Shown here piece by piece: positions 779 through 63,625 of a DNA stretch of 64,000 nucleotides. The DNA is from Klebsiella phage KPP2018, in sequence record NC_110934.1; one strand, 5' to 3'. A program made the translations under genes and the position numbers. The notes beneath the pieces were generated by a model. It ran no database searches. It saw only the letters and a program-made list of their open reading frames with translations, and was not told where the DNA came from. Positions within the stretch are counted from its first letter, which is position 1, and every line of letters begins with the position of its first letter.

Positions 779-781
779 ATA

Positions 782-24900: not shown

Positions 24901-24903
24901 TTA

Positions 24904-25194
24904 TTAGTCCTCTGGATTATCATCCAGGAAATTTTTAATAGCTTCGTGCATAGTTTCTTTACGAAGCTGACGTCCAATCAGAATATGATTAGCTTCTATT
25001 CGACCATTAGGTAAGCGATCCGCCAGAACTACTACAGGAACTTGGCGCACACCAAATTTCTGCATTAATTCTGTATTATCAGTCTCTTTATGGATTTCCA
25101 AATTATAGTCATTGACTACTTTATCAAATACTGGCTCAAACATTTTGCAAGGGTTGCAAGTAGAACCTTTCAATAGATATACTAATTTACTCAT
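24904..25194 (-). CDS. Thioredoxin/glutaredoxin-like protein, 96 aa (CNPC motif)
   Basis: CxxC active-site motif near the N-terminus. Confidence 0.6.
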   Translation of the reverse strand: MSKLVYLLKGSTCNPCKMFEPVFDKVVNDYNLEIHKETDNTELMQKFGVRQVPVVVLADRLPNGRIEANHILIGRQLRKETMHEAIKNFLDDNPED

Positions 25195-25618: not shown

Positions 25619-25624
25619 AATATA

Positions 25625-25695
25625 TACCTCTCTTAACTAATTTATGTATATATTATATAATAACTAGGGCTAAAAGTCAACTACTTTTTTATCTT
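25625..25695 (-). promoter_or_regulatory. T5-type early promoter
   Basis: Motif family. Confidence 0.65.
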
Positions 25696-26110
25696 AATCT
25701 ACTACATGTATAAATCTTTTCCTAACTAGATACATAGTTATTGGGTAAATTGAGTACATAAGTATCGGGGAGAAAAGGGTGAAATACGCTGTAACTCCCC
25801 CAGCTAACATCAAAGGTATTAATGCTAGAGTAAGGGCCATAAGAATCATACCGAATGAAACAGCCAAAGCTATGGATATAGGATTCTCTAGTTCCATCCA
25901 TAACCAACAATATTTCGTATCTCTATGGCAATTGCATTTACAAACGCCGAATGAACCCATAATTATATACTCTAGTCCGTGAATAACCTTTATTAATAAG
26001 CTATTTCGGGTAGTTAATGCAAGGATAGTAAAGACTATCATTAAAACGAATACTACTAGACTTATTTTCCAGATACCTAGCAGCATCATAGTGAATAGTT
26101 CTGCAAACAT
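25694..26110 (-). CDS. Polytopic membrane protein, 138 aa
   Basis: Several hydrophobic segments. Confidence 0.6.
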   Translation of the reverse strand: MFAELFTMMLLGIWKISLVVFVLMIVFTILALTTRNSLLIKVIHGLEYIIMGSFGVCKCNCHRDTKYCWLWMELENPISIALAVSFGMILMALTLALIPLMLAGGVTAYFTLFSPILMYSIYPITMYLVRKRFIHVVD

Positions 26111-26187
26111 GGCTTTCTCCTATCTTCAAAAATTATTAAAGCCCCCTTTGCCTAAAAAGGCGGGAATACTCCCGCCTCAGTTATTAA

Positions 26188-26601
26188 TTAAACTAGTTCG
26201 ACATGACCGCCATCATAGGTACCACGTTTTATTTCATCGTGATAATCTCCCGAAGCATTCCAATCAGCACCAAAGCGAAGTTTAATGCCTAGTTCTTTAC
26301 CGGCTTGTTCAAAAGCCTTTTTAACTGCCCAAAATGCTTCTAAATCATTCCAATCAATTTTGCCATTAATGTATGGAGCAAAATCAAGGGCATCCCCAGT
26401 AATATGCTTGCTTTTACTAGGATCTTTTAAAAATGAAGTACCATTAGCAATATTCTGGGCACTTTGTGCTACTGTACGAATACCCTGTACGATCGTGAAA
26501 TCATATGGAGATAATTCTAAAGCTCTACGAGCTACTTTTTGTAGCTCTGGCTTAACGGTAGCTAATTGTTTTTCGCTATTTTTACCAAATTTAAAACTCA
26601 T
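26188..26601 (-). CDS. lys: Endolysin, L-alanyl-D-glutamate peptidase (M15-like), 137 aa
   Basis: Size and sequence character of the T5 Lys family; directly downstream of the holin. Confidence 0.75.
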   Translation of the reverse strand: MSFKFGKNSEKQLATVKPELQKVARRALELSPYDFTIVQGIRTVAQSAQNIANGTSFLKDPSKSKHITGDALDFAPYINGKIDWNDLEAFWAVKKAFEQAGKELGIKLRFGADWNASGDYHDEIKRGTYDGGHVELV

Positions 26602-27254
26602 ATTGATCTACCTAAAGATCTCTGTTGTGGGGAACAGAGCTTTGTTAAATACTCGTTAAATTTCTCAGAATCGGCTGCATCTACAGGATTATCTTTCCAA
26701 GCAATACCAATATATCCAGCATAGATATTGTTTAGATTGAAATACGGACAAGTGTATATGTAATTAAAAGTAACGTTCTTAAACGCAGGTATATTTAACC
26801 CCATGTATTTATTTACTTTTACACTTAAATCCGATGCGTAGTTAAAGCCTTCCAAGTGACGTCTATATAGCTCAGACGTTTTATTTACCGCTTTATCGGC
26901 CAAGTCAGCCCTATCTAATTGCGCATTGCTTTCCCATGCAATAATGTTAGAATAATCATTAATGGCATCGGGTTTATACTTGACGACAAAAACAGCATCC
27001 GCACCCGTTTGGGAGAAAAGCACCATGCTCTTCTCTCTAGCTACATTAGGAAAGTTATCTATCCTTTGAGTTTGAACATCCTGTAGAACCGCAGACGTGG
27101 AGAAAGTCTTTAAGAATGACATCACCTCGCTAGTATTACTAACAAATAAGAAAATAATGACAGCAACTAAGATAGTTAGCAGACGTTTAAGAAGCGATGC
27201 TGGATCTTTCGCTTCTTGGAGCAGTACCGTTAATAATTGTAAGAACTTTTCCAA
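26598..27254 (-). CDS. Holin (T5-type, 218 aa) with an N-terminal TM segment
   Basis: Size and position; stop overlaps the endolysin start. Confidence 0.6.
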   Translation of the reverse strand: MEKFLQLLTVLLQEAKDPASLLKRLLTILVAVIIFLFVSNTSEVMSFLKTFSTSAVLQDVQTQRIDNFPNVAREKSMVLFSQTGADAVFVVKYKPDAINDYSNIIAWESNAQLDRADLADKAVNKTSELYRRHLEGFNYASDLSVKVNKYMGLNIPAFKNVTFNYIYTCPYFNLNNIYAGYIGIAWKDNPVDAADSEKFNEYLTKLCSPQQRSLGRSI

Positions 27255-27374
27255 TTGTAACCTCCTCTAACCAGTACCATTATACTAATTTTGGAGGAAA
27301 ATTACAATGTGTTTTTAAAGATCACTTCTGGAGCATAAAATTTTGTCGTTGTCAAGAAGAATTTTAGATAAAAG

Positions 27375-27405
27375 AAAAGCCAGGGTCGTTAAACCCTGGC
27401 TTAAA
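27375..27405 (-). terminator. Rho-independent terminator (agccagggt...accctggct plus a T-run)
   Basis: Hairpin. Confidence 0.55.
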
Positions 27406-27410
27406 ACTAC

Positions 27411-28010
27411 TTACTCTTCGTTGTGCTCCTCGAATTGAGGTAACTGGGCTTTATTATATTGCTCAGATCGATATTTTGCCAAGATTTCAATACGCTTATG
27501 GATTTCTTTGCTATCTAGATAGATATTTTTGTTGTCTTTTACCATCTCGTCGATTTCATCTATTGAGAAGAATGGATAGTAGACATCTAGCATCATATCT
27601 TCTACGAACTTGTTGTAAGATTCATAGGCTTTCTTGATTTCTTGACCTTTCTCACAGAATCCGCCAGAGAACGTGTGTCCCATTAACGTAGCATGTGGAT
27701 GTACTACCCATCCATGACAGGATAGGAAAATTGTGCAGTAAGCAGAAGCACTAGGACCAATCAGATGTCCTATAACTGTTCCACGGCAATTAGCAATTAA
27801 GTTAGATAACTGTGCAGCAGTATCAACATAACCACCCGGGCCATTAATCATCAGATTAATTTCGTCGTCCTCATTTGCCTGCATAAGTACCATTGATAAA
27901 TCACGGTATTCATCCGGCGGGCCTAATTCTTCATCAAAGAAAAAGGTATACTCATTAGATTGGCGAATGGAGTGAAACAGGTTAGTCTTTTCTTCTTTTT
28001 TATTAGTCAT
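27411..28010 (-). CDS. ClpP-like serine peptidase, 199 aa
   Basis: NGPGGYV...GPSAS...HPH resembles the ClpP catalytic motifs. Confidence 0.6.
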   Translation of the reverse strand: MTNKKEEKTNLFHSIRQSNEYTFFFDEELGPPDEYRDLSMVLMQANEDDEINLMINGPGGYVDTAAQLSNLIANCRGTVIGHLIGPSASAYCTIFLSCHGWVVHPHATLMGHTFSGGFCEKGQEIKKAYESYNKFVEDMMLDVYYPFFSIDEIDEMVKDNKNIYLDSKEIHKRIEILAKYRSEQYNKAQLPQFEEHNEE

Positions 28011-28022
28011 AGCGATCCTTGA

Positions 28023-28775
28023 TTATCCAACTAGTGGTTCTAGCTCTAAGTCACAGAAGTTATAAACTTCTAGTTTAAGGTTATTGATACCATCGAATTT
28101 ATTAACTAATTCGTGAGTAATATATTTTGCAGGAATACCACTTTCAGATGGATGATCTGATTTAATAGTGAACTTCTGCTCAGCGGGTACTACATTTACT
28201 ATCAAAGAATCCATATCTAAATGGTTTGTTTCTCTGAGTAGCTCTCCTTCATTGGGGAATCTAACATCTGTTATTACGGCGACGTCTGGGTCGTCTTTAG
28301 CGATGGATTGCTCCAGAATTATGAGCCAAATGCGTTCATGCACCAGCTGCCTTCCTAGCTCTGTTCCTACGAGCTGTAACATTTTTCTCGGAGAAATAAA
28401 TAAACTATAAAGACCATCTTCTTTACTCCCTGAGATAAGTTGTTGAGGATTAAGATATTTTTCCTCAAAAATAGGCCAAACGTACGAGAAGTCTTCAAAC
28501 TTATCGATACCATACTTAAACCACACATCCCTGGCTCGCTCCAATTGAGATTGTGTGACCGTAAACCATTGGTCAATCTCTTTTCCCCTGCGCTCTCCTA
28601 GAAACTCTGGAGTTACACCGAGGATTACGGATGCAAGTTCATAAACGGGCTTAGCAAAACTGTAACGACAGGGTAAACACATTGGATACGTGTCATTACA
28701 CCAATCAATAATTAATTTTGCAACGGTATCTTTTCCCGAACCAGCTTCACCATGTAAACCGACTAATACTGACAT
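28023..28775 (-). CDS. dnk: Deoxynucleoside monophosphate kinase, 250 aa
   Basis: P-loop GEAGSGKDT; same size as T5 Dnk. Confidence 0.75.
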   Translation of the reverse strand: MSVLVGLHGEAGSGKDTVAKLIIDWCNDTYPMCLPCRYSFAKPVYELASVILGVTPEFLGERRGKEIDQWFTVTQSQLERARDVWFKYGIDKFEDFSYVWPIFEEKYLNPQQLISGSKEDGLYSLFISPRKMLQLVGTELGRQLVHERIWLIILEQSIAKDDPDVAVITDVRFPNEGELLRETNHLDMDSLIVNVVPAEQKFTIKSDHPSESGIPAKYITHELVNKFDGINNLKLEVYNFCDLELEPLVG

Positions 28776-29128
28776 TAATCTTTCCTATTTGTAATGGGTG
28801 GATAGTAAACTAAGCAACGTTTTTCTTGTAAATCTTGACGATAGAAGCAAACCATACCAGTCAGTCGTGAAATGTAAGAGTAAACTGCTTCCTCACATTT
28901 TGCTTTTGCATTCCAATCTTTGTATGGTATAACAACTACTACGCCATCTTCTCCATTTGTAGCTAATTTCTTTTCAAACCTAAAGTTAAAGCTACAAGGT
29001 TGAAGTCCTTTAGGCCAGTCTACATGAGCTTGCTTTAACTCATGAGATGGCTCTGGTTTTATTTCTTCTGCACAGCCTGTGATCGTGATTGTGGCTGCGA
29101 GCAGTACTCCAAGTTTCCAGTTAAACAC
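28775..29128 (-). CDS. Outer-membrane lipoprotein, likely o-spanin (lipobox ITGC), 117 aa
   Basis: Signal peptide plus a Cys lipobox; overlaps the i-spanin. Confidence 0.55.
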   Translation of the reverse strand: MFNWKLGVLLAATITITGCAEEIKPEPSHELKQAHVDWPKGLQPCSFNFRFEKKLATNGEDGVVVVIPYKDWNAKAKCEEAVYSYISRLTGMVCFYRQDLQEKRCLVYYPPITNRKD

Positions 29129-29508
29129 GCTAATCTTTCCTCGAACTCTTTATTCTGCTTTTTAGCAATTAATGTTACCAATCCAGGCTTTGCAGCGATA
29201 ACATCTTGACGACTAAGAGCTTTATCTAGCTGCTTAATCTTTTTGTCTAGATCTGCTTGCGAAATATTATTCATTGTGAAATACTGATTCATTCTAGTCT
29301 CACGAAGTTCGCTTTCAGCTTTCACCTTATTAAGGGAAGTCTCTAGAGAGGAAATCTTTTTAGTAGCTACCGCAAGATCTCCCGCTAAAGTCTCCACTTT
29401 ATCTACTAAGTGATAAGCACCGAACCCGATGCCTATCGCTAGACCTGCTCCCAGGATATACCACTTACCGTGCCATATTCCTGAAAGAAGTTTTTGTATC
29501 AAATCCAT
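29059..29508 (-). CDS. i-spanin-like protein (N-terminal TM plus coiled coil), 149 aa; its 5' end lies inside repeat copy 2
   Basis: Architecture; overlaps the lipoprotein gene. Confidence 0.55.
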   Translation of the reverse strand: MDLIQKLLSGIWHGKWYILGAGLAIGIGFGAYHLVDKVETLAGDLAVATKKISSLETSLNKVKAESELRETRMNQYFTMNNISQADLDKKIKQLDKALSRQDVIAAKPGLVTLIAKKQNKEFEERLACLTGNLEYCSQPQSRSQAVQKK

Positions 29509-32500
29509 GCGCTGCTAACCTGTCTTTATCTGATACTTTAATCATATCAGGCTCACCAGTTCCTAGTACACCAAAGATATACTGTTCGAGAACTTGGTGT
29601 AAACGGTATAAGTTACTTTCAATTTCCTGCCACGGAATACCTGACTGATGGAAACGAATGTTAGTCTGAATCACGAAGTTACGAACATCATCGTTATCGT
29701 TCTTTTTAATACCTTTCACATATGCAATCGGTACACGCAGTTCGGATAAGATACGTTCTGCTTTAGGTTTTGCTTCAGCGAGCAAATCACGCATTGTTTC
29801 ACGAACATCTCCACGACTCTTATCCATTAAGTAAGAGCGAGCATGCAATCCCATCTCTTCCATTTTATCGAACATAGTGTCGAGATTAAACGTTTTGAAG
29901 CTAAATGCTGGATGCCAGCAGTACAGCTCGTGTAACCAGTAAACTTCACCTGCAACAAATAGTGGGTTTACAAAATATTCGAAATCACCACGAAAAGATA
30001 GCGAGCCATCACGAAATACCTGGCGAGTATGCACAATGTTCTTTTCTGCATCATCGGTTACTTTAACCAGCAACTCTTCAGTTTTACGCTCCCAAACACG
30101 ATCTGGGTCGAACAAACTGTTTTGCAAATCATACACATCGGCGAACTTAGAAATAATCCTCATATTTAATCCTCTTGCCTCAATCTATAAACATATTATA
30201 CAAAAGTTTGGGCATCTAAGCAACTAAAATTTTATTATAAAAATAGCCCAGTCGCAAAAGTGCAGGCTGGGCTTTGTCATTATTTGCTTTTGCTAGTAAG
30301 TTGATTTAGTATCAATCTTATGTAATATTAGTTTCTCTAGCTTTGCGTAGTACCCCTGCATTTCTCCACAATTTGATGTCAGCAACTGTTTCTTTATATG
30401 GAGCAATGGTAGAACCAATTGGGCCAGCAACTAATAGTCCAAAGAACCCTACAATACGCATGTAGAACAAGCATTCTTTGGCTGTCATATTATTTACTGC
30501 TTTTTTCTGCTTTTCATCTTTAAACTTCTGTTCTTGATCATCAATATGTAGATACTTAACAAACCATTCAGCAGAATATTCATCCAAATGTCTAATAATA
30601 GCTATCGCATATCCAGCACCGATTAAAAACCAGGTTGTAACAAGAATTAGTAATATAGTCATATTATCTCCAGTTAGGGCTAGCAGCCATCTCACCACTT
30701 ACCGCACTAAGGGGCACGACTCCCTTATCCGTAACAGTTGCAGGTGACGCAACTCGGTCCTACGCGAGTTCTTTAGGTATTCTGCATTTCAGCTTTAAAT
30801 TTTTTCATATTACGAGTTTTTCTATAAAAGAAAAACACAGATGTTGGGCCTAGAAGAATATCCACAATAAATATCATAGATCTAGCACATCTGAGTAATG
30901 TTTTATCATCAAGAGGAGGCAGATCTAACGGTCGAGTTTTATGTATAACGTATAATATTACATCTTTATTCTTAGAAATATACAGATCATCAACCAAGCT
31001 GTAAATAGCTACTATAGATCCAATGATGAACCAAAGAGCAAATGGAGAGATAATCATTTCAGATCCTTTTCATTAATTAGAATATTAGTAAACAGTGGAG
31101 TAACTCCTAGACTCATAGTAGGTCCAAACATATTCATGGCTACCCACAATTGCATAGTGATCATCCCATCTTTAATCTCTGGATCTTTATATTCTTCGAT
31201 ACGTTTTTTAGCAAAGGCAATTACATCTGGAGTACTACCGTTCTTTACAACATGATCATGCCAAAACTGGGTATTCTCACTACGTAGGAATGTTAAAACA
31301 TCCTTAGTTGCTGGAATCTGCACTGTGCTATTGATGTTTAGTCTTTTCACGTTCTTTTCCATGTTACTCTTCTCCTTCAAAGTCGCAATCATAACGACAA
31401 GTAAAAGAACTGGAGCTATTAGTACGTTGGGTGGTTATTTCACCGCGTTTGCTAATAGTAACGGCTGGAGTAGAGAAGTTTTTATTAGTATAGATTTCTA
31501 CTTTACCATTACGTTCTTTAACATCACGAACTTTACCATACTCGGTAATAATGCCGTTCTGTTGGACTTTAACACTGCCATTTTTCATAGAAACTTTGGT
31601 AGATGCCAGAGAACCGAAACTAACTGCGGAGATCATCAGTGCAATAATAAACTTATTCATCTTCATCCTCCCCACTACAATCACGACATACATCATAATC
31701 GTTGAAAGAACGTTCGTGAGCTTCACACCACCAAGAACAAGAATCGCAGAGAAACATTTCAGTTTTCTCAATTGCTTGGCCTAAAAGATCATCAGCTTCC
31801 TCAGCAGTAATCTTCAATCCGCACACATCTGCCACACGTTCTTTAATTAAACGACCTGCTTCGTGGTAAGACATACAGGTTCCCGCAACATCATGTTCAA
31901 GAACATGAACAGCACAGTCTAGACGAGTTTTCATTTCAAACCTCTCTCATCAATTTATAAACATATTATAGCAAGAAAAGAGAGGTTTAGCAAATGAATT
32001 ATTTCAGAATTTAGTCATAGCACCACCATAATCCACGCTTACGCATGTCATGGTCGCGATTATAATCATAATTTTCTGGATCTTTCATCACGCGGTGGAG
32101 TTCTTGACGGTTCCCTTGGCGAACCATTTTATTAGAATGCCACTTAACATTCTTACTAATAGAATTCCAGTTATAACCATCCTTTTTCTCATTACGAATG
32201 GTTGCTTCCTTCATTTCTTTTTTGATGTCGTCCCAGGATTTGGCATAAATAACACGAATCCAGTAGCCATTTTCTTTGAGGAAAGAATATTCTTGAGAGA
32301 ATTGTTCTTTAGACTTCCACCACTGATCACCAGATTGTTTACGATAAGTACGGCTCATATTACCTCCATTAAGTCTTTTAAATTAACCTAATGTGGATGA
32401 ATTTTATTATACATATATTATGTACCTTTATACAGAAAAACCCCAGACTACTTATTCAATAGCTGGGGTTTGTTATTAATTACAGATCGGGGCGTTCATC

Positions 32501-33509
32501 TTCGAACGCCACGAAGCCATCAAATTCATCATTTGAAATACCACCAGTATAGGTGATGTCCGCAATCATCGCTTCCATTTTCCGGATCTCCGAGGTTTTC
32601 ATGCCTGCTTTACTATTCTTATAGTATTTGCGAGGGTTCCCACACATCCAACAAGAACAGATGCAAGGAGTAGTAGTGACAATACCTAACCGCTTAGGGC
32701 TTTCTTCATGTGGAAAGATTGTCCAATACTTCTTGCGGTTGTTCTTCACACGTTGCCGGTGATGACGTCTTAATGCTCGATCCACACATTTCTCCTAAAA
32801 CTTGGGAGATAAATGGAGTTTGCTCGACTACCTTGCGTAGTTCGGAGAAACCGTATCCAAACCCCATTACATCGCCTGAGTAAATGTACGACTAATAACG
32901 TCGTTCTGTTGTTCACGAGTCAGTGCATTAAATCGAACAGCGTAGCCAGAGACACGGATGGTCAACTGATGATATTTTTCAGGATGTTTCTGCGCATCCA
33001 AAAGCTGATCACGGCTTAACACATTGACATTTAGGTGCTGACCACCTTCGATTTGAGGGGCGACTTCCACTTTGACTTCACGGAAGGCTTCGGGATCGAA
33101 TTGTGGTGTGATACCTTCTAGATCTTCAACTAGAACTTTCTGTTTAAGTTCACCATTGTCGGAGTATAGCTGAATAATCTGATTTTCATGAACAAGGTTA
33201 ATTACGCCAGATTTAAGATTTTGATATGCTTTCATTAGATCTCCCCGATGTTAGAATTTGGCTCAGCTCTTTATTCTTTATACTTTTCCATAGTATACGG
33301 AAACTGTCTTACCAGTTTGGTTCATGACGTATGCTACTTCATCTTCTTTTAAAAAGATGGCTTGATCTACTCCAACTATAGCCAATCTCTTATTTCTAGG
33401 ATTAAAGCTTACGCTTTTGCCCGTATGGATATGTTCACCATTCTTGGCTGACATTATTTTAATTGTTAACATAGCTGCTCCTAAATTTAGCTATCTCTAG
33501 CTATTTTAA

Positions 33510-36500
33510 TGGTAGTTAGTAGTGGATTTGAACCACTGTAGTCGCTCCGTATGAGGGAGGTGCATAACCACTCTGCCAACTAACTGTTATGTTTTACTAG
33601 ACTAAGTAAGTATTCTTTATACTCTTTAGACCAATTAGCTTTTTTAAACTTTCCTGGACGCATAGTCTTAATTCCTAAATTTGGTACTCCGGGAGGGATT
33701 TAAACCCCCGATCTCTCGGTTATCAGCCGAGTGCTTTAGATCGCTAAGCTACCGAAGCATTAATATTTAATTGCAGAACGTTTACCATTTCTAGGCGCAT
33801 CTGGAAGTCGTGCACGTTCTGCCATTCTTCGCTTAATCTTTGAGATATTTTCTAGTGTTTGTTCTTCAGGCTTAATACCTGAAACACTACACCACTGATT
33901 ACCATCCCATGCGGTAATGATCATAACACCATTACCCATAATCTTTTCTGTGAAAGTAATTCTCATTATAGCAACTCATCTAAGCAAGAGGTATATTTAA
34001 GTTTACCATCTTTATCTACTTTGATTTCGACTTCCGCTCGTGGTACTTGACGAACTACACCATGAATCATCTTATAGCGAATGCCTTTAGCTGGTTCACG
34101 ATCTTTTGGAAATACTTGCTTAACCGTTACTACCTTGAAACCCTCACGCGGTGTTAACACTACTACTTGATCACCTTCTTTGATCTTCCAAGAGCTAGGA
34201 AATTCATAGGTATAGCGTTGACCACCAGTTTGGAACACAACAGAAAGATAACGTTTCATTTGGTTTCCCTCTCATTAATTTATATAAATATTATAACAAT
34301 AAATAAGAGAGAAAGCAAATGAATTTTTAATAAAGTTTAGTCACTTCATAAACTATACTACGAGATTCTTTATTACGTTGTATTAAATTAGCATATGCTT
34401 CTTCAGCTTCATTTTTAGTATTAAAGTCTATAACGTGAGAGGTATTAGCTCTGTTTGATTGGCTATACCAGATAACTACTAGGAGTTTAAACATACTAAT
34501 CCTTAAATTGGTGCTGGGCACAGGATTCGAACCTGCAACGGGATTACTCCTCCTGATTACAAATCAGGTGCATTCAACCATTCTGCCAACCCAGCAGAAC
34601 CCGTTATTTCAACGGGATTTCTTTTTCAATAACAGGGGACTTGTCAGTCATGACTGTCATTGCCATTTGTTGTAGAAATTCAAAGGTGAAGGCTACACGT
34701 TCTTCACCAATCTCTACTTCTACACGTTTCTTTTGTTTATCGATCTTGACTTTCAGATTATCAGCCATCTTCGGGTTCTCGTTGCTGCGCTACTTCTAGC
34801 CAGTCTGGTAGAAGAAACTTTGTACGAAATTCTTCGTAAGTTTCTTTGGGATAAAAGCTAAAACCTCCTTTCTCGTCATTCAGGATAACAGAGCCGTCAG
34901 TTTGTTCGTATGCTCGGTATGTTTCTCCAATAACAATAACTCGTTTATCGGTACTTTTATTACGAAATTCAAAAACGTGCATAACGTTTCCTTAAAGTTG
35001 GAGCGGCTAGAGGGAATCGAACCCTACTCAGCGAGGCTTGGAAGGCCTGCGACACAACCCGTGTGCTTAACCGCTTATTGTTTGGCTGGAGAAGGAGGAA
35101 TCGAACCTACCATTAACGGAGTCAAAGGCCGTTGTGCTAACCGTTACACTACTCTCCAATTATTTGGCTGGAGTGCCTGGGATCGAACCAGGAACCTTCG
35201 GAGTCAGAGGCCGACGATCTGCCAATTGATCTACACTCCAATAACCCTTTACTCTACAGGAACCGTGGCGATTGGTTCTGGATCTTCTAAACGTTTGCCT
35301 TCATGATCTACTCGAATAACTCCGCATCCTTCGCAAATCACAACAGCACCGTAGCCTTCTTTAACTTCAGCTTCTGTAATCAAACCAGAAAGATCACCAG
35401 TATCTCTGCCCCACATATCAATGGAGCATTGTTTGCAGAAATCAGCCATATTTTATTTCCTATTTAAGTTAATTTGGGGTGGCTAGTGGAATTCGAATCC
35501 ACATAGGCCTGATTCACAATCAGGATCATTAACCAATTATGATATAGCCACAATTGAAAACTCGCAGGGTTAGCGAAACCTTCCTCAATTAGCATGTTCT
35601 AGAATACTAATCAAGTTATCTCCTATTGCACGCAGCTCAAGACGAGTACGAATTTTCAATTGTGGCGGCTCTCCGAAACTCTTCTACTCTAGCCTTAGCA
35701 GCTTACTCCCGAACGCATGTCGGGAAAGTCTTACTAAGAGCATCAAATAGCACCGTTACACTTTGAGCCATAGATATATCAAGAAGCAGAAGGACTTGAA
35801 CCTTCACGAGATAGACCATTTATCTCAGCCGCTTTATGAGGTATGTTGCAAGGAGTGGATGTTCCTTATAAACCTTTTAGGCAGCCCCGTCTACCGATTC
35901 CGGCATACTTCAAGAATTTTTATAAACCAGCAGAAGCCTCATTTAAAGCATCAACAATAGCCTCACGTTGGGTCATTCCATACCCGGTGGAATCTAGGTG
36001 TGGCAAATAAGCCTTCCATCCCTTATCTGTTTCATGAAGACATGCTTTAAATTTTGTACCATCCTTCATTGTTACAGTAACTGTTTTGCTCATAAGATTT
36101 CCTTATAGTTAATTGGCAGAAGATAATGGAGTCGAACCATCACCGTATCGCTACAGCGGGCTGGTTTTCAAGACCAGTTACGTACCACTACGTCCTATCT
36201 TCTATTGTTTGGCGGAAGAGGAGAGATTTGAACTCTCAAGCCGTTTTACCAGTCAGCCACTTTCCAAGCGGTTTTCGTCGCCAATTCGATTTGCTCTTCC
36301 AATAATAAGATGATGCCTCTATCACACCAGGCAGTTACGCCTCGCTGGGATTCGAACCCATTAAAACAGCTCAACCAAGATAGTAGGTTTAATTTACTCT
36401 GACCATCAAATTTGGTGCGTGACAAGGGATTCGAACCCTCAAAACCCGACTTCTAAGGACGGTATGTATGCCAATTCCATCAATCACGCATGTTTGGTGG

Positions 36501-39500
36501 AGAATAACGGAATCGAACCGTTCTGATGTCCTCGGTGCAAGCGAGGTGTCCACTCCATGCAGACCCATTCCCCAAATTCTTTAGTTTACTAAGGCTATTA
36601 GCTCGGCGTAACTACAGCACCTTCGCTTCAAGCGGAAGGAACCGCGTCATCTCGCAAACCCGATACACTATTCAGTTGCCGCTGAATCTAGTGGACTAAT
36701 CTAGAACTTCTCCCGAATCGTAGGGATCGTGCTTTTTGGCAGCCAGTCCTAGGTCGAGCTAATACCTTAGTGAACTATGATGAGGATTTCTCCTCATCAA
36801 TTTATATAAATATTATAACAAGAAATTAAGCATCAAGCAAGTACATTTTTAGCGATTTCTTGTAGTTCCTTTACATCACGAACGTAAAGGTAATCAGAGC
36901 TTCCAGAGTGCATACTTTGCATAACCACACCTTCATCTGGTGCATTATCCTTCAGAGTAATTCCTAACCAGAACTCGGCAAAACTAGGTGTTATCTCACC
37001 TTGACTTGCCTTGAATACATCATATTCTGTAAGTTCTTGACCAGTAGATAATCCCAAATATACAGAACTAAGATCAATCTCTTTATGAGACTCATAAAAC
37101 TCCGATAGATCCTTTTCCATATCCCAGCCATGCTGTAGCGCGAACTCCATTGTCACATGACCGAAATAACCTTGAATCTTGCTTGATAATTGCATTTGCA
37201 ATTCCTTATTTTGAGTTAATTGGTACTCGGTGATAGAATCGAACTATCGCAACCGCCGTGTAAAGACGGGGTTCTCCCATTAAACTAACCGAGCAATTTG
37301 GTAGATCGCCTGGGACTCGAACCCAGAACCTTCCGATTAAAAGTCGGATGCTACTAAACCTATTGAGCTAGCGATCTATTAGTAACCATTGTATACTTCT
37401 TTAATAGAGTGAACCTTCAAGTAAGGGTGATTAGTATTAAACTCTGACATTACTTCATCCCAATTTTTACCATAATGGGCAAGTAAGGATTTTGATGTAT
37501 TCTTACCTGAACGTTTGTCGCTTACTACTAATCGAAATACTTTCATTTCGAAATCCCCTATTAAAATGGAAGCGGGTGCAGGAATCGAACCTACCTCTTT
37601 CTAGCTTATGAGACTAGTGATCTCTACCAGAGATCTAACCCGCAATTGTTTGGTCAGTGCGGCAGGACTCGAACCTGCGACCCGAAGCATCCAAGGCTCC
37701 CACGCTACCAACTGCGCTACGCACTGTTAATTCTTTTATTGTGGAGGAATATTAATAATTCGTCCGTCTACACAATAAACGGTACTAGGAATTGTACTAT
37801 ATATATGTAGAAATTCTTTATATTACTCTCCCCGCCACAGAAATTTTTAGCAAATTCATACTCTTTATTAATGGTTGAGTCAAATTTAAAACAACCAGTA
37901 AGTAGGAATACAGATAGTAATAAAATTTTCTTCATTTAGCTTTCCTTCTCTTCACTTTATAAAATATATTATACAGATAATTAAGCAGAATAGCAAATGA
38001 ATTTTTAATAAATTTACTTATTGTGTAGGCCACCTGGAGGCTACCAACCCCACGGCTGACAAAGAAGTTTGCGAGACCTCTCTTAAATGCCAGAATAGAT
38101 CCGCCGATCTATCGGAACCTACATAATAAGTAAACTTTATAGTGTCATTCTAGACAGGACTCGAACCTGTTATCACTTGTGCGGACTTACGAGAACCATT
38201 CTTTCACTCGAATCGAACGAGCTTCTGCCCTCGCCAAGCTGGTTTCCCCGTCAACCACGCTAGAATGTTTAATTGTTTTCAGTGCAAGAGTCCGAGTCTT
38301 GGACACGACCGCTTCGCAAGTACATAGGCAGCTTATCATGAATCAGCACTTCCGAATTGCTAGCTCCGTGTTCTGCACTGAAATTTTATTAGTTTAACCG
38401 TAAAGTATTATCTACTTCACCATTAATTGTTCGGCATTCTTCTGGGATTGCCGGGGTGGCCTTGTATTCCCACCATTCAGAACCGTCATATTCACCACGT
38501 TCTAACCAAGTTCCATCAGTAAACCATACGTTACCATAAAGCAATTGTCCACCGAAACCAGAATCATATTTAAAGTCTAGATTATTTAGAAAATCTTCAA
38601 TATCTTTTTCTGTATAACCTACGGGTAATACCCAAACTTCTTTGTCCCCATAATAACCGAATTCTATCTTAATACACTTAACTTCAGACTTAGTATTCTT
38701 TAGGGCAAGTAACAACTCTTCTTTAGCATTAATCATAACATATTTCTCGTGCTAGTTTAATTTGGCGCGACCGATGGGATTCGAACCCACATTCTCTCCC
38801 GTGACAGGGGAGTACCATTACCAAGCCAGCCCCGGTCGCATAATTCATTTACTCAGCTTTGAGTTTTTCAATAGCTGCATTAAGTTCCTTAAGAAACTCT
38901 TTTCGTACATTAAGACGATTAAGACTTACTAGTATATCATGTTTAAGTTCTTCGATATATTTCTTCTCAACTTCAATATTGTTGATAGTGCTATCACGAT
39001 GAACTTCTAGCTGCGCAATTACATTCTTGGACATGCTTGTTTCCTCAGTTATTAATAAAAATGGTATCTGTGGCTGAATTCGATATCAGCAATGATAGCT
39101 GGTTGGCTACCGGTTTACTTAACTCTACACAGAATTTGGCGGGCCGTGTAGGATTCGAACCTACGTTGTCTTTCGACATGGATTAACAGTCCACCGCCAA
39201 ACCGCTTGGCTAACGACCCTAAATTTATATTGCTGACTAGGATTTTCACCTAGACGGAGTTAGCACCGTAGCGTGTAGCGGCATACCCCTCCAAACCGTG
39301 CCTCATCTTTCAATTACGGAGACAGTGTTCCTACGCGTGCCTGAATTGATTTAACAATTCTTTCAGCAAATTGGACGACCGCATGAGATTTGAACTCACA
39401 TAAGAAGGATTTGCAATCCTTCTCCTAAGCCATTCAGCCAACGGTCGATTTATCTTGTTCTGTCATGTTGCTCCCCCAGTTCAATTTATGTAATTATTAT

Positions 39501-48790: not shown

Positions 48791-49476
48791 TCGATCATAG
48801 CTGCAACACAATAGCTTTCAACTAAGGCATCAAATGCAGGATCATGCTTAACCGGATAGATCCCATAACGAATAGTGTCCATCTTCTCCATTTTAGCTAT
48901 TGCCCAGCTAATACCTTCGGTCTCTAGAGCTTTATAACTGTATCCAGCTTGCATCCAGAGATTACGAAGAGATCGAACATTACCCAAATTCCAGAATTTC
49001 CACGGAACTACCTCTTCATTGGTTCCAGCATGGAACGTGTTTGCAGAGTAGATAGTCATATCAAACTCTGGGCCATTGCCATAATACAAAGCGTTTTCGC
49101 CTAGAGCCAACTCCATAATATTTTGGGCCATAGAGAAGGCAGCATAGTTTGAGCCTAATTTATTAGTGCAATGATGTTTACCATTTTGGAAGGCAATCAG
49201 TTTTGGATTACGTTCCTTCATAGCTTCCATAATGTGGATAGCAGACGGGCTATTTTTAGCTTGATCCATCCAGAATGCTAGAGTAGATGCTGTAACTTTA
49301 GCACCAGAATTAAGCTGATCTTGTACATCCAAAGTAACAAATACTAGATCAGGGTCTTTATCAATTCCATGCATAGCCACAAAAGCGAAAGAAGGCATTG
49401 CGATATGAGTAGTACCACAATCTCCTGGAGTTCCTAGAGATTCAATATCTAGCATACCAAATGGTTTTACTTTCAT
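48775..49476 (-). CDS. DEDDh 3'-5' exonuclease (DnaQ-like), 233 aa
   Basis: Exo I LDIESLG, Exo II YGNGPEFD, Exo III HDPAFDA. Confidence 0.65.
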   Translation of the reverse strand: MKVKPFGMLDIESLGTPGDCGTTHIAMPSFAFVAMHGIDKDPDLVFVTLDVQDQLNSGAKVTASTLAFWMDQAKNSPSAIHIMEAMKERNPKLIAFQNGKHHCTNKLGSNYAAFSMAQNIMELALGENALYYGNGPEFDMTIYSANTFHAGTNEEVVPWKFWNLGNVRSLRNLWMQAGYSYKALETEGISWAIAKMEKMDTIRYGIYPVKHDPAFDALVESYCVAAMIEKMKI

Positions 49477-50062: not shown

Positions 50063-50578
50063 TTACTTCGCTTTACGCTTGCGAGCTGGTTTAGCAGATT
50101 TACGAGCGGAATCACCCGTGAACTTAATGCCTACACCGTAACACAGAGCACGAACATTATCTTTACTATACTCTACGCCAAAGATATTTGGTTTAACAGA
50201 ACCAAACTGTCCACGAGTATCACGCAATACATCTGCTGTTGGTTTACGCTTCTGGTTAACTGCCTTCTCATAGTCTTTCATAGACATACCATTACGAGAG
50301 AACAATTCAGCCCCAGCGTTGAAGCTCAGGGAAACTGGGACAGATTTGTGGCCGTAATTTTCTACATACATAACCATTTTGTAGGATTTACGGGTCGCAT
50401 TTTTAGCCTTAGGCTTCTGACGAATCGGAGCCGGATTATTCAGTGCTTGAGCAGCCTGAGCATCGGTAGGATGCTTACGCAGATGGCGTTCCAGACGAGC
50501 TTTGCGATTAGCCTCGGTCTGCGGGAAAGTTTTAACTGCCGGAGCTGCTTGAGTTTTTGCGTTTTTCTGCTTAGCCAT
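50063..50578 (-). CDS. Basic (Lys/Arg/Ala-rich termini) putative DNA-binding protein, 171 aa
   Basis: ORF. Confidence 0.6.
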   Translation of the reverse strand: MAKQKNAKTQAAPAVKTFPQTEANRKARLERHLRKHPTDAQAAQALNNPAPIRQKPKAKNATRKSYKMVMYVENYGHKSVPVSLSFNAGAELFSRNGMSMKDYEKAVNQKRKPTADVLRDTRGQFGSVKPNIFGVEYSKDNVRALCYGVGIKFTGDSARKSAKPARKRKAK

Positions 50579-50587
50579 TATTTGTTT

Positions 50588-50665
50588 TCCTTTTTGTTTA
50601 TCAATTTATGAAGTATATTATACGAGAATTTGAAGCGTTTAGCAAATGAATTTTTAATTTATTAA
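50588..50665 (-). promoter_or_regulatory. T5-type early promoter
   Basis: Motif family. Confidence 0.7.
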
Positions 50666-51103
50666 CTGTAAGCTTCTTTTAATTTCAGACCTTACCTGCA
50701 TCAAAAGAACTCCTAAAGTATTATCCCCGATGCCTCGGCAAACACCCCAATATGTATCTCCCCAGGTATTTCCTTCGATCAAAGTTGCATTTTTTGTTGC
50801 TAACAGTTTGTCTCTCAAATCAGGAATTGCAAACTTTAACCGTAAAAGCTCTAGCATTACATCATCTTTTACCTTATCCCAGTCATGGCGCAGAGTTAAT
50901 TTACGTCCTCTACGTTTGGCAACTCCTGCGTTTAGAGAGCGTAGTACATGAGCTACATCATCTTTTTGGTCTGATTTCATAGCCTGAAAAGCATGTTCTA
51001 CAGTATCAGCATGCCATATTTCATTTAGATATTCGAAAGTAATTGGTGATAAATAAAAGTTTGATAAGAAACTATAAGTACCTTTAAATTCAGTAATCTT
51101 CAT
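50654..51103 (-). CDS. NADAR (YbiA-like, DUF1768) domain protein, 149 aa
   Basis: FLSNFY...EHAFQA...GNTWGDTYWG motifs. Confidence 0.65.
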   Translation of the reverse strand: MKITEFKGTYSFLSNFYLSPITFEYLNEIWHADTVEHAFQAMKSDQKDDVAHVLRSLNAGVAKRRGRKLTLRHDWDKVKDDVMLELLRLKFAIPDLRDKLLATKNATLIEGNTWGDTYWGVCRGIGDNTLGVLLMQVRSEIKRSLQLIN

Positions 51104-51384
51104 TTTTTACGCCCCGCATCTTTAGCCTCCTCGGCTGTATAGATATACTGATAAGCCCCTTTGGAGTAGGCTGGAGCAGTACACATTTTCTTACGCTCAA
51201 TCTCTTCTTGAGCTTTTCTTTCGCGTTCAGCTAATTCTTCGTCCAGATAAACTAAACGTTGTTCTGGAGGAGGTGGAAGTCGTGTCTCTGGCTCACCAAT
51301 ATTAGCCTTTCTTATTTGACGAGGTGATTGTGCACGTTTTCTCAATGGTTTAAATCCTAATGAATTTGAGTTATAAATCCACAT
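51100..51384 (-). CDS. Hypothetical protein, 94 aa
   Basis: ORF. Confidence 0.5.
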   Translation of the reverse strand: MWIYNSNSLGFKPLRKRAQSPRQIRKANIGEPETRLPPPPEQRLVYLDEELAERERKAQEEIERKKMCTAPAYSKGAYQYIYTAEEAKDAGRKK

Positions 51385-51391
51385 AAAGCCC

Positions 51392-51462
51392 TCCTCACTT
51401 TCAATACGAATATTATACTAAATTAGAGGGCTTTAAGCAAGAAAATTTTTAATTTATTTATT
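51392..51462 (-). promoter_or_regulatory. T5-type early promoter
   Basis: Motif family. Confidence 0.65.
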
Positions 51463-51949
51463 ACATCTCAGCCATTTCAGCTTCAGTAATAACAGTATTA
51501 CACAATGCATCTACAGCTTCATTACCACTAATACCAGAATGTCCTTTAACCTTAATAAAGGTAGGATTAGTATTATGAAAGTTGATATACTGCTGTGTTA
51601 ATTTAAATGCTTCCTGCCAAAGTTCTAGATTAAGAGGAACTTCACCATCTGCTTTCTTCCAGCCTTTCCTTTGCCAAGAAAACATCCAACTTTCCATGCC
51701 GTTTTTGCAATAAGCAGAGTCAGTATAGATAGCAATTGGTCTATTATCTTTTTTAACGGACCAACGTAGAGCTTCTACAATAGCTGTGAGTTCCATCTCA
51801 TTATTTGTAGTTTTAGGATTATAACCAGATTTAGAACCTAAACGATCGTCGTTATCATCATAGACAATAAAACCCCAAGCACCTGGACCTGGGTTAGACT
51901 TACAAGCACCATCTGTGTAAATGTGGAAAACCGATATTATACCTCCCAA
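51461..51949 (-). CDS. rnh: Ribonuclease H, 162 aa
   Basis: IYTDGACKSNPGPGAWG...E...D motifs. Confidence 0.8.
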   Translation of the reverse strand: MGGIISVFHIYTDGACKSNPGPGAWGFIVYDDNDDRLGSKSGYNPKTTNNEMELTAIVEALRWSVKKDNRPIAIYTDSAYCKNGMESWMFSWQRKGWKKADGEVPLNLELWQEAFKLTQQYINFHNTNPTFIKVKGHSGISGNEAVDALCNTVITEAEMAEM

Positions 51950-52311: not shown

Positions 52312-53165
52312 TTACACAGTGAATGGATATGCAATAGCAGGGTGGTGTTCGTAACCACGAACAGTAAAATCATCCTTACTTACCCAGGTCAATACATCCT
52401 CCAGAGTTTGGATATTTGGATTGATTTCTAGAGTAGGAGGTGCAAAAGGTTCACGATCGAATTGCTTATGCTCCATCAAAACATTATACTGATCCTCATA
52501 GATATGAAGATTGATAATCTTCTGGCGTGCAATTCCTGGTTTAAGGCCTGTAATCTGTGCCATTAATGCTAGAAGCGTATAGCACTGAACCATGTTAAAT
52601 ACTTGGCCTAACAGGAAGTCATTAGATCTCTGGAAAGAGTTCAGGTATAATGTATCTCCCAAAATAGAGAACTGATGGGTGTGCATACATGGACGTAAGC
52701 AACCCTTTGAGAACTCTCCCGGATTCCAGAAGGTTAGAATTTCCCCCGATCATCAATGCCCTTCTTCAGATTATGATAAATCTTGGCTAGTTGGTCAAAC
52801 ATAAGACCATCGGAATTAGTCCACTGACGTCCTTGAACACCATAGACTCGTCCCATATCATCCTCACCTTTACGGTATGGATTGTCTAGCCAAGCTAAGT
52901 TTTCATTTGCATTAGCATTCCATGTGTTAACACCAATAGCGCGGAATTGTGCTGCTGAGTCATACCCACGTAGATACCCAATCATTTCCATTATTGCTTG
53001 TTTTGCAAACGCCTTACGGGTAGTAATAAGGGGAAATTCACCTGCACCTACGTTAAAAGTAAAATCTGCGTCAATAATAGTGAGGCAACGAACCCCTGTT
53101 CTAGGATTCGTTACCCACTGACCCTCTGATAGAATACGTTTTCCAACTTCGATATACTGATCCAT
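52312..53165 (-). CDS. thyA: Thymidylate synthase (ThyA-type), split by a 1-nt frameshift in a G5 run (plus strand ccccc at 52743..52747); parts 53165..52734 and about 52746..52312
   Basis: The N-terminal ORF ends ...GIDDRGKF*. The frame shifted by one continues ...[25 protein letters not shown]..., which aligns with the ThyA active-site region (WNP...PCH...QFYV). Confidence 0.75.
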
Positions 53166-61301: not shown

Positions 61302-61491
61302 GGGTTTAAACGCCGCTTTGGAAAACGCATTAATGCAGCACTGGGAAACTGGCTATAGGGATGGTGTTGAATCTTGCGCTACTATGCTAGAAGTTATTGC
61401 TAATACCTTAATGGAGAAAGGTAATAAAGAATTAGCTGAGCTGTTAGATAGTATTGTGCAAAACTTTAGAGAACAGGTGAAAAATGCGTAG
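61270..61491 (+). CDS. Hypothetical protein, 73 aa
   Basis: ORF. Confidence 0.5.
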   Translation: MAFSKPMLPDKGLNAALENALMQHWETGYRDGVESCATMLEVIANTLMEKGNKELAELLDSIVQNFREQVKNA

Positions 61492-62299
61492 ATTAATTAT
61501 TATTAGCGGTGCAGGTTTGAGTGTTGAAAGTGGTGTACGAGCTTTTCGTACTGATACTGCTAGTGGTAAAGCATTGTGGGATGATTATGATCTAGAAGAA
61601 GTATGTAATATTCATGCCTTTCGTGGTAATTTTTATCATAAAACCCATATGTTTTACAACAAGCGTCGTGAAGAGCTAAAAACTGTTGAACCCAATCTTG
61701 CGCATTTGCGTATTGGTGAATGGTATAAACAATATCCAGGTCAAATAGTAAACTTGACTACCAATGTTGATGACCTTATTGAGCGTGCTGGCGTTCCACA
61801 TAGTGACATTCTGCACATTCACGGATATTTAAAAGAGGTTGTTGTAGCTGATAGCTACAATAGTAGCAATAAACGGATTATTGATGTAGGATACAATTCT
61901 ATTGATCCAGATGATTATAAATGGGTTAAACCTAATGTAATCTTCTTTGGAGAGCATGCTCCAGCATATGCGGAGATGTACAATGTTTTTGATGGTATTA
62001 CCAGTCAAGATATGATCATTGTGGTTGGTTGCTCTAACCAAGTAATTAACTTCTACTGGGAATTATTTCCTGTTCTTAATTTGACTGCTGCCAAGCTAAT
62101 GGTTGTTAACTACTATGATAGTGCCCTAGCGGTGGAACCGGGCTATCAAGGTATGACTCGTAGTGAGATGTACCAGCTGGAAGAACGCGGTATCCCTTAC
62201 TGGAGTAAAGGTGCGGTAGATGCTTTCAGTGATCCTGATTTTATTGCTCGTGTAGAAGCTCATTTAGGGGGTAGACCTTATGTATCAGGAAATAAGTAA
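61484..62299 (+). CDS. Sir2-family (sirtuin-like) NAD-dependent deacylase/ADP-ribosyltransferase, 271 aa
   Basis: GAGLSVESGVRAFR matches the sirtuin NAD-binding motif GAG(I/L)SxxSG(I/V)xxFR. Confidence 0.65.
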   Translation: MRRLIIISGAGLSVESGVRAFRTDTASGKALWDDYDLEEVCNIHAFRGNFYHKTHMFYNKRREELKTVEPNLAHLRIGEWYKQYPGQIVNLTTNVDDLIERAGVPHSDILHIHGYLKEVVVADSYNSSNKRIIDVGYNSIDPDDYKWVKPNVIFFGEHAPAYAEMYNVFDGITSQDMIIVVGCSNQVINFYWELFPVLNLTAAKLMVVNYYDSALAVEPGYQGMTRSEMYQLEERGIPYWSKGAVDAFSDPDFIARVEAHLGGRPYVSGNK

Positions 62300-62792
62300 T
62301 ACTCCAATTATTTTTCTAGACATTGATGGGGTGCTCAATTCGAGCATCTCCCACCATCATGCACCCGATGATGAAAAGATTTTCTTTGGAAGTGACTGGG
62401 TTTTCAAACCGCTTCTCAAAGCTTTTCAGGACTTTATTCGCCCTTCTCCGATAATGATTGTTGGAGTATCATCTTGGTTCTCTGTTAGAAATGAGATGGA
62501 GAACGTTCAGATTATGACCGGATTAGGTCTTATCGATCGCTTTCTTGGTACAACGGATTTTACTGGGGGTGGATTATCTAGGGGTAATTCTGTTCTTCGC
62601 TTCGTTGAAAAGCATAGGCTCAAACATTGGTGTGTGCTTGATGATGCGGGTGCTATGATGTATCAGTATCCAACGGTTATAGTCAACGGTAGGACTGGGA
62701 TAAATCTTCAAGATTTAAAAGCTGTTAGCTATATGCTAGAATTTAGCCCAGATCTTGAAATGTGTAAGTCCTTACAACAATTTAAGGTGTAA
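62280..62792 (+). CDS. HAD-superfamily phosphatase or 5'-nucleotidase-like protein, 170 aa
   Basis: Motif I FLDIDGVLN. Confidence 0.55.
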   Translation: MYQEISNTPIIFLDIDGVLNSSISHHHAPDDEKIFFGSDWVFKPLLKAFQDFIRPSPIMIVGVSSWFSVRNEMENVQIMTGLGLIDRFLGTTDFTGGGLSRGNSVLRFVEKHRLKHWCVLDDAGAMMYQYPTVIVNGRTGINLQDLKAVSYMLEFSPDLEMCKSLQQFKV

Positions 62793-62794
62793 AT

Positions 62795-63223
62795 ATGTTT
62801 AATAATGTATTCTCTAAAGAAGCTAACCCAATTTTGGTTAACTTTTGGCGTACTCTCCCAGCTAGCCTGTATAATGAGGCTATTAACTCTTTGAAAATAT
62901 GGTGTGAGAATAACGAAATCTCCTTTGCTTTTAAAGATGATATTGATGAGGCTCCCTGTATTGGTTTAATTGTTCAGGTAGAGGATGGTCTTGAAGAGAT
63001 TGTGGGCTGGAAAGAGTTAGACGAAATGGGCTTAGTTTTTGCGTTAAACTATAAGCTGTTTATGCCTGCTAAGCATCGCCTCGTTGTTAACTATAAAACT
63101 AGTGAATCTCCTGGTTTTCAGGTTAATGAACGTTATGGTTGGTCTTACTCACCGGAAGAAGTAAATGAGGGGATTCAGAAACTTCGACGTTTCGGGTATA
63201 TGATCCCAGGTTTAACTGCCTAA
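62795..63223 (+). CDS. Hypothetical protein, 142 aa; paralogue of the next gene
   Basis: Shares PCIG...W.ELD.MGL..ALN..LF...PG with 63233..63625. Confidence 0.6.
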   Translation: MFNNVFSKEANPILVNFWRTLPASLYNEAINSLKIWCENNEISFAFKDDIDEAPCIGLIVQVEDGLEEIVGWKELDEMGLVFALNYKLFMPAKHRLVVNYKTSESPGFQVNERYGWSYSPEEVNEGIQKLRRFGYMIPGLTA

Positions 63224-63232
63224 GGGGGTATA

Positions 63233-63625
63233 ATGGAACAAGTATATTGGCGTCAGATTGACCCTAGTTTGGTGAAACGTGCGGAGAAGCTGCTACAACG
63301 TTGGTTGGGGGTAGGACAAGCCTCCTTCACTTTTCCTGAGCAGCAAATAGATGACCCCTGTATTGGTGTTTTTCTATCCGGCTACGCGGGGGAATGGGAA
63401 TTGGATTGGAATGAATTGTCTGCTATGGGCTTGATTGTTGCCCTAAACTTCTCTTTGTTCCACCCACGTGGTTTGGCCATATGTCGTGTGCCGGATGATG
63501 GTTGTTCGCCCCATCTTTTACAGGTGGAAGATGATATTTGGGAGTACACTCCAGGTATTCTCAAAGAAGCTAAAGAACAATTAAATCGTGTTGGGATTTA
63601 TGTTCCAGGCCTAAATGATGAATGA
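63233..63625 (+). CDS. Hypothetical protein, 130 aa; tandem paralogue
   Basis: See previous. Confidence 0.6.
   Translation: MEQVYWRQIDPSLVKRAEKLLQRWLGVGQASFTFPEQQIDDPCIGVFLSGYAGEWELDWNELSAMGLIVALNFSLFHPRGLAICRVPDDGCSPHLLQVEDDIWEYTPGILKEAKEQLNRVGIYVPGLNDE

Follow-up and report, generated by a model that had tools for sequence, protein, structure and literature searches.

A Bas32-type NADAR gene, probably directed against DarT1, as a single-gene insertion in the T5-like backbone of Klebsiella phage KPP2018

The NADAR proteins are guanine-ADP-ribose glycohydrolases (Schuller et al. 2023; Cihlova et al. 2024, PMC11125620). In the solved members of the family, a Glu/Lys pair contacts ADP-ribose and is needed for activity (E88/K95 in the NADAR of E. 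coli C7 and E36/K43 in T4 AdfN), and a further catalytic residue on the last strand is Glu in the YbiA subfamily, Asp in the antitoxins linked to DarT1 and His in the T4-type phage NADARs (PMC11125620; Schuller et al. 2023). The closest described relatives of the gene considered here were reported by Johannesman, Carlson and LeRoux (Nat Commun 2025), who found that Bas32 and Bas33, two T5-related phages of the Markadamsvirinae, encode identical NADARs, which were named AdfN^Bas32 (PMC11825919). When expressed ectopically in E. coli, AdfN^Bas32 neutralised the DarT1 toxin without any phage factor, and on DarTG1 hosts it brought the titres of T5 (a DarTG1-sensitive phage), RB69 and Bas25 back to their full level, with zero effect on the plaquing of T5 on DarTG2, a thymidine modifier (PMC11825919). 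The Bas32 type differs in this from AdfN^T4, the product of T4 gene 30.3, which did not neutralise DarT1 outside T-even infection (PMC11825919). E. coli YbiA, for its part, gave no protection against DarT1 in vivo (PMC11125620).

The stretch of DNA analysed here, referred to as the window, comprises 64,000 nucleotides of Klebsiella phage KPP2018 (NC_110934.1) and corresponds to the region of early genes in a T5-like phage, a Tequintavirus of the Markadamsvirinae. A preliminary description of it had proposed that a NADAR encoded in this region reverses DarT-type guanine ADP-ribosylation and so serves as a counter-defence. That core idea is backed by the experiments on AdfN^Bas32, an orthologue that is 98% identical (PMC11825919). 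The finding of the NADAR is correct but already known: its mechanism and its role in counter-defence both appeared in print between 2023 and 2025.

The NADAR protein and its closest relatives

The gene itself can be described in one line.

50654..51103, minus strand: adfN-type NADAR gene, 149 aa (assigned from the ORF and its motifs, Pfam, an AF2 model and 146/149 identity to bas32_0066)

The NADAR signatures that had been picked out by eye are all present in its translation, as YSFLSNFY, VEHAFQAMK and EGNTWGDTYWG. The product matches the Pfam NADAR family PF08719 with E=7e-22 and 78.9 bits (cutoff 35.1) over nearly its full length, residues 9-142 aligning with profile positions 9-163 of 163; the match lies far beyond chance and the protein is a genuine NADAR. 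An AlphaFold (AF2) model built on an alignment of 47 sequences reached a pLDDT of 97.4 and a pTM of 0.91, and it has the YbiA fold, with core helices flanked by small beta-sheets. A Foldseek search of the PDB with this model returned E. coli YbiA (2b3w) with a TM-score of 0.82 and the complex of the Phytophthora NADAR (PnNADAR) with ADP-ribose (8bau) with a TM-score of 0.75, and besides these two there were zero matches at E<0.9.

The catalytic residues could be read from the same alignment of 47 homologues, all of them stand-alone NADARs of about 140-150 aa, in which E36, K43, E110, D116, W119 and G120 are invariant. E36 and K43 lie seven residues apart, the spacing of E88 and K95 in the NADAR of E. 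coli C7, and they align with the EHYFQAQK stretch of YbiA. Together with E110 they align with the catalytic Glu, Lys and Glu described for NADARs. E110, in the motif LIEGN, is the acidic residue of the last strand and corresponds to the Glu of the YbiA type. Since the window protein has this YbiA-type Glu and YbiA itself is not protective, the family features alone are insufficient to predict an activity against DarT1.

The gene occurs in 94 phage records. One of them is Escherichia phage IrisVonRoten (MZ501075), whose locus tags take the form bas32_xxxx, which identifies it as the BASEL phage Bas32. Its gene bas32_0066 encodes a protein identical to the window NADAR at 146 of 149 residues (98%). 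The three differences (T9A, H73S and K104E, at positions 9, 73 and 104) lie away from the catalytic residues and are conservative or on the surface, so that no functional difference is expected. As bas32_0066 is the sole NADAR-like ORF that a profile search found in the 6.45-kb Bas32 locus, and also the sole match to the window gene reported in the Bas32 record, it is very probably the AdfN^Bas32 tested by Johannesman et al. The locus order (rnh, T5.090-like ORF, NADAR, DUF7022), the length and the catalytic residues are the same in both phages; the surrounding mosaic is different, Bas32 having for example a T5-type allele of thyA.

The DarTG sensitivity check put forward in the preliminary description has in essence already been performed for the orthologue, by ectopic expression (PMC11825919). 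By analogy with this 98%-identical protein, the window NADAR would be expected to neutralise DarT1 and to rescue phages on DarTG1 but not DarTG2 hosts (PMC11825919), and it probably has a protective role in KPP2018. The literature examined holds no report of a NADAR knockout in Bas32 or in any other native T5-like phage. The HIDEN-SEQ and NARP3 papers give no data on T5-like NADARs and deal with T4 adfN only.

Several other known systems resemble the window gene in part. With DarG1, the BC4488-family NADAR found for example in E. coli C7, it shares the fold and the Glu/Lys pair and would by analogy share the reaction, the hydrolysis of ADP-ribose from guanine N2 in single-stranded DNA. In contrast to DarG1, it is a minimal domain of 149 aa without extensions, and it is an orphan in a lytic phage: no DarT or other ART gene lies beside it, the neighbours being the T5.090-like ORF, RNase H and DUF7022, so that the protein is an AdfN in the sense of a phage NADAR with no adjacent cognate ART toxin. 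Membership of the DarG1 antitoxins was rejected on the absence of an adjacent darT1 and on Glu110 in place of Asp (D171 of the E. coli C7 NADAR). AdfN^T4 is likewise an orphan phage NADAR that counters DarTG1 and has E36/K43 as catalytic residues, but it belongs to another NADAR clade, undetectable by BLAST, in which the third catalytic residue is His and the proteins are 208 aa long. Assignment to the T4 type was rejected because of Glu110 rather than His and because the Bas32 protein has been placed outside the T4 cluster in the literature. The DS-32 NADAR anti-phage protein (NCBIfam NF053876) was also rejected, with 44.7 bits against a cutoff of 240.

A single gene inserted between T5 backbone genes

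Over the 2.3 kb around the NADAR gene, identity to dozens of phages of Escherichia and Salmonella (Demerecviridae, Markadamsvirinae) is 95-98%. In the annotated relative BB1, the early genes follow the T5 order, with the tRNA cluster, homologues of T5.080-T5.088, the NADAR region and then RNase H; after these come thymidylate synthase, DHFR, nrdAB and PhoH, and then, on the opposite strand, nrdD, the Sir2-like gene and further genes. The features of the window that bound the NADAR gene are as follows.

51461..51949, minus strand: RNase H, homologue of T5 rnh, a flanking backbone gene outside the insertion (PF00075, E=3e-32)
51412..51440, minus strand: promoter of early type (TTGCTT, 17-nt spacer, TATAAT), preceding the T5.090-like ORF
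51100..51384, minus strand: T5.090-like ORF, 94 aa, PHROG 4593, its stop codon overlapping the NADAR start codon (ATGA)
50617..50645, minus strand: promoter homologous to P-H207 (TTGCTA, 17-nt spacer, TATAAT), just downstream of the NADAR stop codon
50063..50578, minus strand: DUF7022 gene, homologue of T5.089, with a basic product (pI 10.6), a flanking backbone gene outside the insertion

The order in T5 is rnh (T5.091), a promoter, T5.090, promoter P-H207 and T5.089, without a NADAR. In a three-way alignment of the window, T5 and Bas32, T5 and the window are collinear until the final 60 nt or so of the T5.090-like ORF. Past this point the window and Bas32 have a different ORF tail and the 450-bp NADAR gene, and homology to T5 restarts a little upstream of P-H207. 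On its left side the insertion is thus delimited by the last 20 or so codons of the T5.090-like ORF, which diverge from T5.090, and on its right side by the promoter at 50617..50645, which drives the DUF7022 gene. A larger cassette was sought in the alignment with T5, and what was found was a clean indel of about 0.5 kb holding only the NADAR and the last 60 nt or so of the upstream ORF. The NADAR is a stand-alone, single-gene accessory insertion in a T5-like backbone.

When the complete T5 genome was searched with a profile, the best hit had E=1.6 and no NADAR came to light, with the window, Bas32 and UTK0009 as controls scoring 199-216 bits (the window 216). T5 therefore lacks a NADAR genome-wide, which fits its published sensitivity to DarTG1 and makes it a natural control.

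The promoter at 51412..51440 was read by eye against the annotation of T5, where a promoter is marked in the homologous intergenic gap; a consensus scan missed it (the -35 hexamer TTGCTT matches at 3/6 positions). Neither a promoter nor a terminator lies at the boundary between the T5.090-like ORF and the NADAR gene. The conserved promoter and the ATGA overlap, with no promoter or terminator intervening, point to an early bicistronic orf94-NADAR transcript from 51412..51440.

It is highly probable, taking the explanation as a whole, that the product of 50654..51103 is an antitoxin-like orphan NADAR, of the same type as AdfN^Bas32, that counters DarT1/DarTG1. The gene would be expressed early, under the promoter of the T5.090-like ORF that precedes it and to which it would be translationally coupled. 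During infection of a DarTG1 host, the DarT1-type ADP-ribosyltransferase of the defence system would add ADP-ribose to guanine N2 of single-stranded phage DNA, and the NADAR would hydrolyse the N-glycosidic bond between the ADP-ribose and guanine N2 in that DNA. Removal of the ADP-ribose would then restore DNA replication and, with it, phage production. In all of this the NADAR would act independently of RNase H, the exonuclease, DUF7022, Sir2 and HAD.

Some irregularities were seen elsewhere in the window. Positions 1..13593 and 29465..43057 are copies that differ by a single mismatch (at 9336), and 13594..43057 is exactly 29,464 bp long, so that the window carries a tandem duplication of 29,464 bp, which spans the entire tRNA cluster. 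Its junction, at 13593|13594, interrupts a T5.077-like ORF and, among 246 matching phage records, is contiguous in none; an assembly artefact is the likeliest cause. The thyA gene is split into two ORFs by a 1-nt deletion relative to BB1, the frameshift lying near 52747, and the canonical ATG start codon that relatives have for rnh, at 51937..51935, is ATA in the window. As such apparent errors or defects lie nearby (the thyA frameshift and the rnh ATA start), the window sequence is of uncertain quality, but the ORF of the NADAR is intact.

Alternative roles for the enzyme and its neighbours

The surroundings of the NADAR gene had been read as part of its function, in that the preliminary description placed it in a nucleic-acid-processing neighbourhood and, with more distant genes, in a toolkit centred on NAD and ADP-ribose. 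Besides RNase H and the DUF7022 gene, the genes concerned are these.

48775..49476: DEDD-type exonuclease homologue (Pfam Rv2179c-like 3'-5' exoribonuclease, 33.8 bits against a cutoff of 27; PHROG 255 'exonuclease', E=1e-52)
61484..62299, opposite strand to the NADAR gene: Sir2 family gene (PF02146, E=1e-24)
62280..62792, opposite strand to the NADAR gene: HAD gene (HAD_SAK_2, E=7.5e-20)

The RNase H, exonuclease, Sir2 and HAD assignments were all borne out, the last two genes lying about 10.4 kb from the NADAR gene. The 'basic DNA-binding protein' at 50063..50578 is indeed basic, but its binding to DNA found no support in the analysis. That these genes form a coordinated toolkit with the NADAR, or that RNase H and the exonuclease form a functional unit with it, would draw on the fact that all of them are real and lie inside about 12 kb, and on the insertion of a NADAR next to rnh on two occasions. 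Against this, RNase H, the exonuclease, DUF7022, Sir2 (T5.102 in T5) and HAD (T5.105) are T5 backbone genes that occur without a NADAR, T5 itself having every one of them, and co-inheritance with Sir2 and HAD was rejected on the counts, which stand at 94 phage records for the NADAR and 418 for Sir2 and HAD. The Sir2 and HAD genes also belong to a separate operon on the other strand, and AdfN^Bas32 needs no phage factor to be effective in E. coli (PMC11825919). The toolkit is largely refuted by this gene distribution and is very improbable; the neighbourhood is simply the T5 early and replication backbone with one inserted anti-defence gene.

Other proposals concern what the enzyme acts on. The most substantial is that its main natural target is some other ADP-ribosylated nucleic acid, such as RNA carrying ADP-ribosylated guanosine, ADP-ribosylated cytidine or DNA modified by YarT-like or pierisin-like ARTs, with the activity against DarT1 as one facet of a broader eraser. 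NADARs, including those of the YbiA type, strip ADP-ribose from RNA guanosine (PMC11833690) and NADARs also strip it from cytidine (PMC12945103), a YbiA-type NADAR is the antitoxin of YarT, a toxin unrelated to DarT (PMC11125620), and E110 of the window protein is a Glu of the YbiA type; that other ADP-ribosylating defences may be countered is also a suggestion of Johannesman et al. (PMC11825919). By analogy with this recent biochemistry a broader eraser role is plausible, but the sole in vivo phenotype demonstrated for the orthologue concerns DarT1/DarTG1 (PMC11825919), and a main target of another kind seems unlikely. Much further removed is a metabolic role as a YbiA/COG3236-type N-glycosidase that destroys reactive intermediates of the riboflavin pathway, a reading from which the public labels 'riboflavin biosynthesis protein' and 'GTP cyclohydrolase II' derive. 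Among solved proteins the best match is indeed E. coli YbiA (E=3.6e-15, 37% identity, TM 0.82), which is likewise a 'naked' YbiA domain with Glu on the last strand, and TIGR02464 is matched with E=3e-18. Its 66.4 bits fall, however, under the curated equivalog cutoff of 73.7, and membership of the YbiA/COG3236 equivalog was rejected on this and on the lack of either a fusion or a neighbourhood with RibA/RibD, the protein standing alone at 149 aa with no rib genes nearby in the annotated neighbourhood of its relatives. YbiA also differs from the Bas32 type in not protecting against DarT1, an activity demonstrated for the orthologue (PMC11825919). With a sub-threshold TIGR02464 score, no rib genes and nearest homologues on phage-like contigs only, a role as a riboflavin-metabolite glycosidase is unlikely, to the point of being barely credible. 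Iyer et al. 2022 proposed from comparative genomics that most phage NADARs degrade soluble immune signals or by-products derived from ADP-ribose rather than macromolecular adducts (PMC9503650), and a homologue with 61% identity to the window protein does adjoin a YAcAr gene. No assay supports this proposal, whereas the removal of ADP-ribose from DNA by NADARs has direct evidence (Schuller et al. 2023) and expression of the orthologue saves cells from a toxin that modifies DNA (PMC11825919), which makes it the least probable of the roles considered for this gene.

Annotation, distribution and origin

Read as an enzyme that counters DarT1, the gene is of use mainly for annotation. Its current public labels, among them 'swarming motility protein', 'GTP cyclohydrolase II', 'riboflavin biosynthesis protein' and 'hypothetical protein', mismatch the published activity of the orthologue, and the records should read anti-DarT1 NADAR (AdfN). 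Carriage of the gene should also predict which of the T5-like phages used in therapy or biocontrol will plate on DarTG1-positive E. coli and Salmonella. The result opens no new question.

A search of a large protein collection placed the product in a single tight cluster at 98% identity, with 235 member sequences, below which there is a gap in identity, the next homologues being about 60% identical or less. In all 94 phage records with the gene its identity is 95-99%, and about 440 records share the flanking region, which makes it an accessory gene in roughly a fifth of the sequenced T5-like phages. In the Epseptimavirus UTK0009, a second NADAR allele, 60% identical to the first, was found in the adjoining intergenic slot. 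The genes of that phage run rnh, NADAR, T5.090-like ORF and DUF7022, as compared with rnh, T5.090-like ORF, NADAR and DUF7022 in the window, so that two alleles with 60% identity occupy adjacent intergenic slots in different genera. From its sequence and position, this arrangement indicates that a NADAR was probably acquired independently in the same small interval, and independent acquisition in turn suggests that the function may have been selected for repeatedly.

A further step would be to see the short interval downstream of rnh in T5-like phages as a recurrent landing pad for independent NADAR alleles and, jointly with this, to credit the enzyme, with its YbiA-type Glu110, with a range beyond DarT1; the two together make a doubtful but possible proposition. 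Were it true, the candidate substrates would include ADP-ribosylated guanosine in RNA, ADP-ribosylated cytidine and DNA modified by toxins unrelated to DarT, whether YarT-like or pierisin-like ARTs, and the enzyme could in this way counter defence systems as yet unlinked to it. As to the origin of these genes, an archaeal ancestor has been suggested for the clade (PMC11825919), and the nearest homologues outside the T5-like phages, which are 55-61% identical to the window protein, lie on phage-like contigs in both of the contexts examined.

NADAR alleles beside rnh and on a Logan contig

Another NADAR gene was found in the Salmonella phage vB_SenS_UTK0009 (locus L005, 2989..3438), where it is inserted immediately 3' of rnh. 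Its product is 60% identical to the window allele and its slot is the intergenic gap next to the one that the window gene occupies. This divergence and placement indicate that the two T5-like lineages acquired NADAR independently inside the same ~0.5-kb interval. A further homologue, 61% identical, lies in region 6001..6826 of a phage-like contig of 57.8 kb from the Logan assembly of SRR12876859 (L006), directly upstream of a YAcAr-domain gene. A 7-deazaguanine gene set (QueC/QueD/FolE/QueE-like) is present within a few kb, which suggests that the contig may derive from a phage having both a modified guanine and a guanine-ADPr eraser.

Public labels conflict among the records matching window 50063..51103 and 48775..49476. 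NADAR itself is called a 'swarming motility protein', 'GTP cyclohydrolase II', 'DUF1768' or 'hypothetical protein', and the unrelated DUF7022 gene is also labelled 'swarming motility protein' or 'virion structural protein'. Records of the exonuclease homologue name it 'metallopeptidase', and the 94-aa T5.090-like ORF is given as 'DksA C4-type domain-containing protein'.

Reading frames of thyA and rnh

Bas32 has the NADAR locus in common with the window at ~97% identity, but its thymidylate synthase gene (L002 953..1792) is an 840-bp T5-type allele very different from the window thyA (52312..53165), which is of the 855-bp type also carried by the annotated T5-like relative BB1. The pairing of a nearly identical NADAR locus with divergent thyA alleles is a case of mosaicism.

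Relative to the intact BB1 gene of 855 bp, the window thyA lacks one nucleotide of a G run near 52747, which breaks it into two ORFs (52734..53165 and 52312..52686, both on the minus strand). It is either a pseudogene or the product of a sequencing error. For RNase H, the start codon position (51935..51937, minus strand) reads ATA in the window versus ATG in BB1, where it is preceded by the Shine-Dalgarno sequence GGGAGG. The sole in-frame start upstream, a TTG at 51949, falls within the Shine-Dalgarno sequence, and the ATA reflects either impaired translation of rnh or, again, an error in sequencing.

The Sir2/HAD operon

The Sir2 and HAD genes belong to a conserved operon of the T5 backbone:

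61484..63625, plus strand: Sir2-family protein, HAD_SAK_2 and two paralogous DUF7415 proteins

HAD_SAK_2 is the 'Swiss Army Knife RNA repair' HAD, and its gene overlaps the end of the Sir2 gene in the window, whereas in T5 and BB1 two small ORFs (T5.103 and T5.104) separate them.

A tandem duplication

The window also contains a tandem duplication of 29,464 bp. Positions 1..13593 and 29465..43057 are identical except for a single mismatch at 9336, one exact repeat unit spans 13594..43057, and the tRNA cluster is duplicated whole, with each of its 21 tRNAs present twice.

13593/13594: duplication junction, cutting off the T5.077-like ORF 12763..13599 (plus strand)

The truncated ORF is joined to sequence that is matched, in relatives, by the left terminal repeat at its inner end, and the uninterrupted junction was found in 0 of 246 public phage records with a match to it. 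A genome of ~110 kb would be about 29 kb longer with the duplication, which is therefore probably an assembly artefact.
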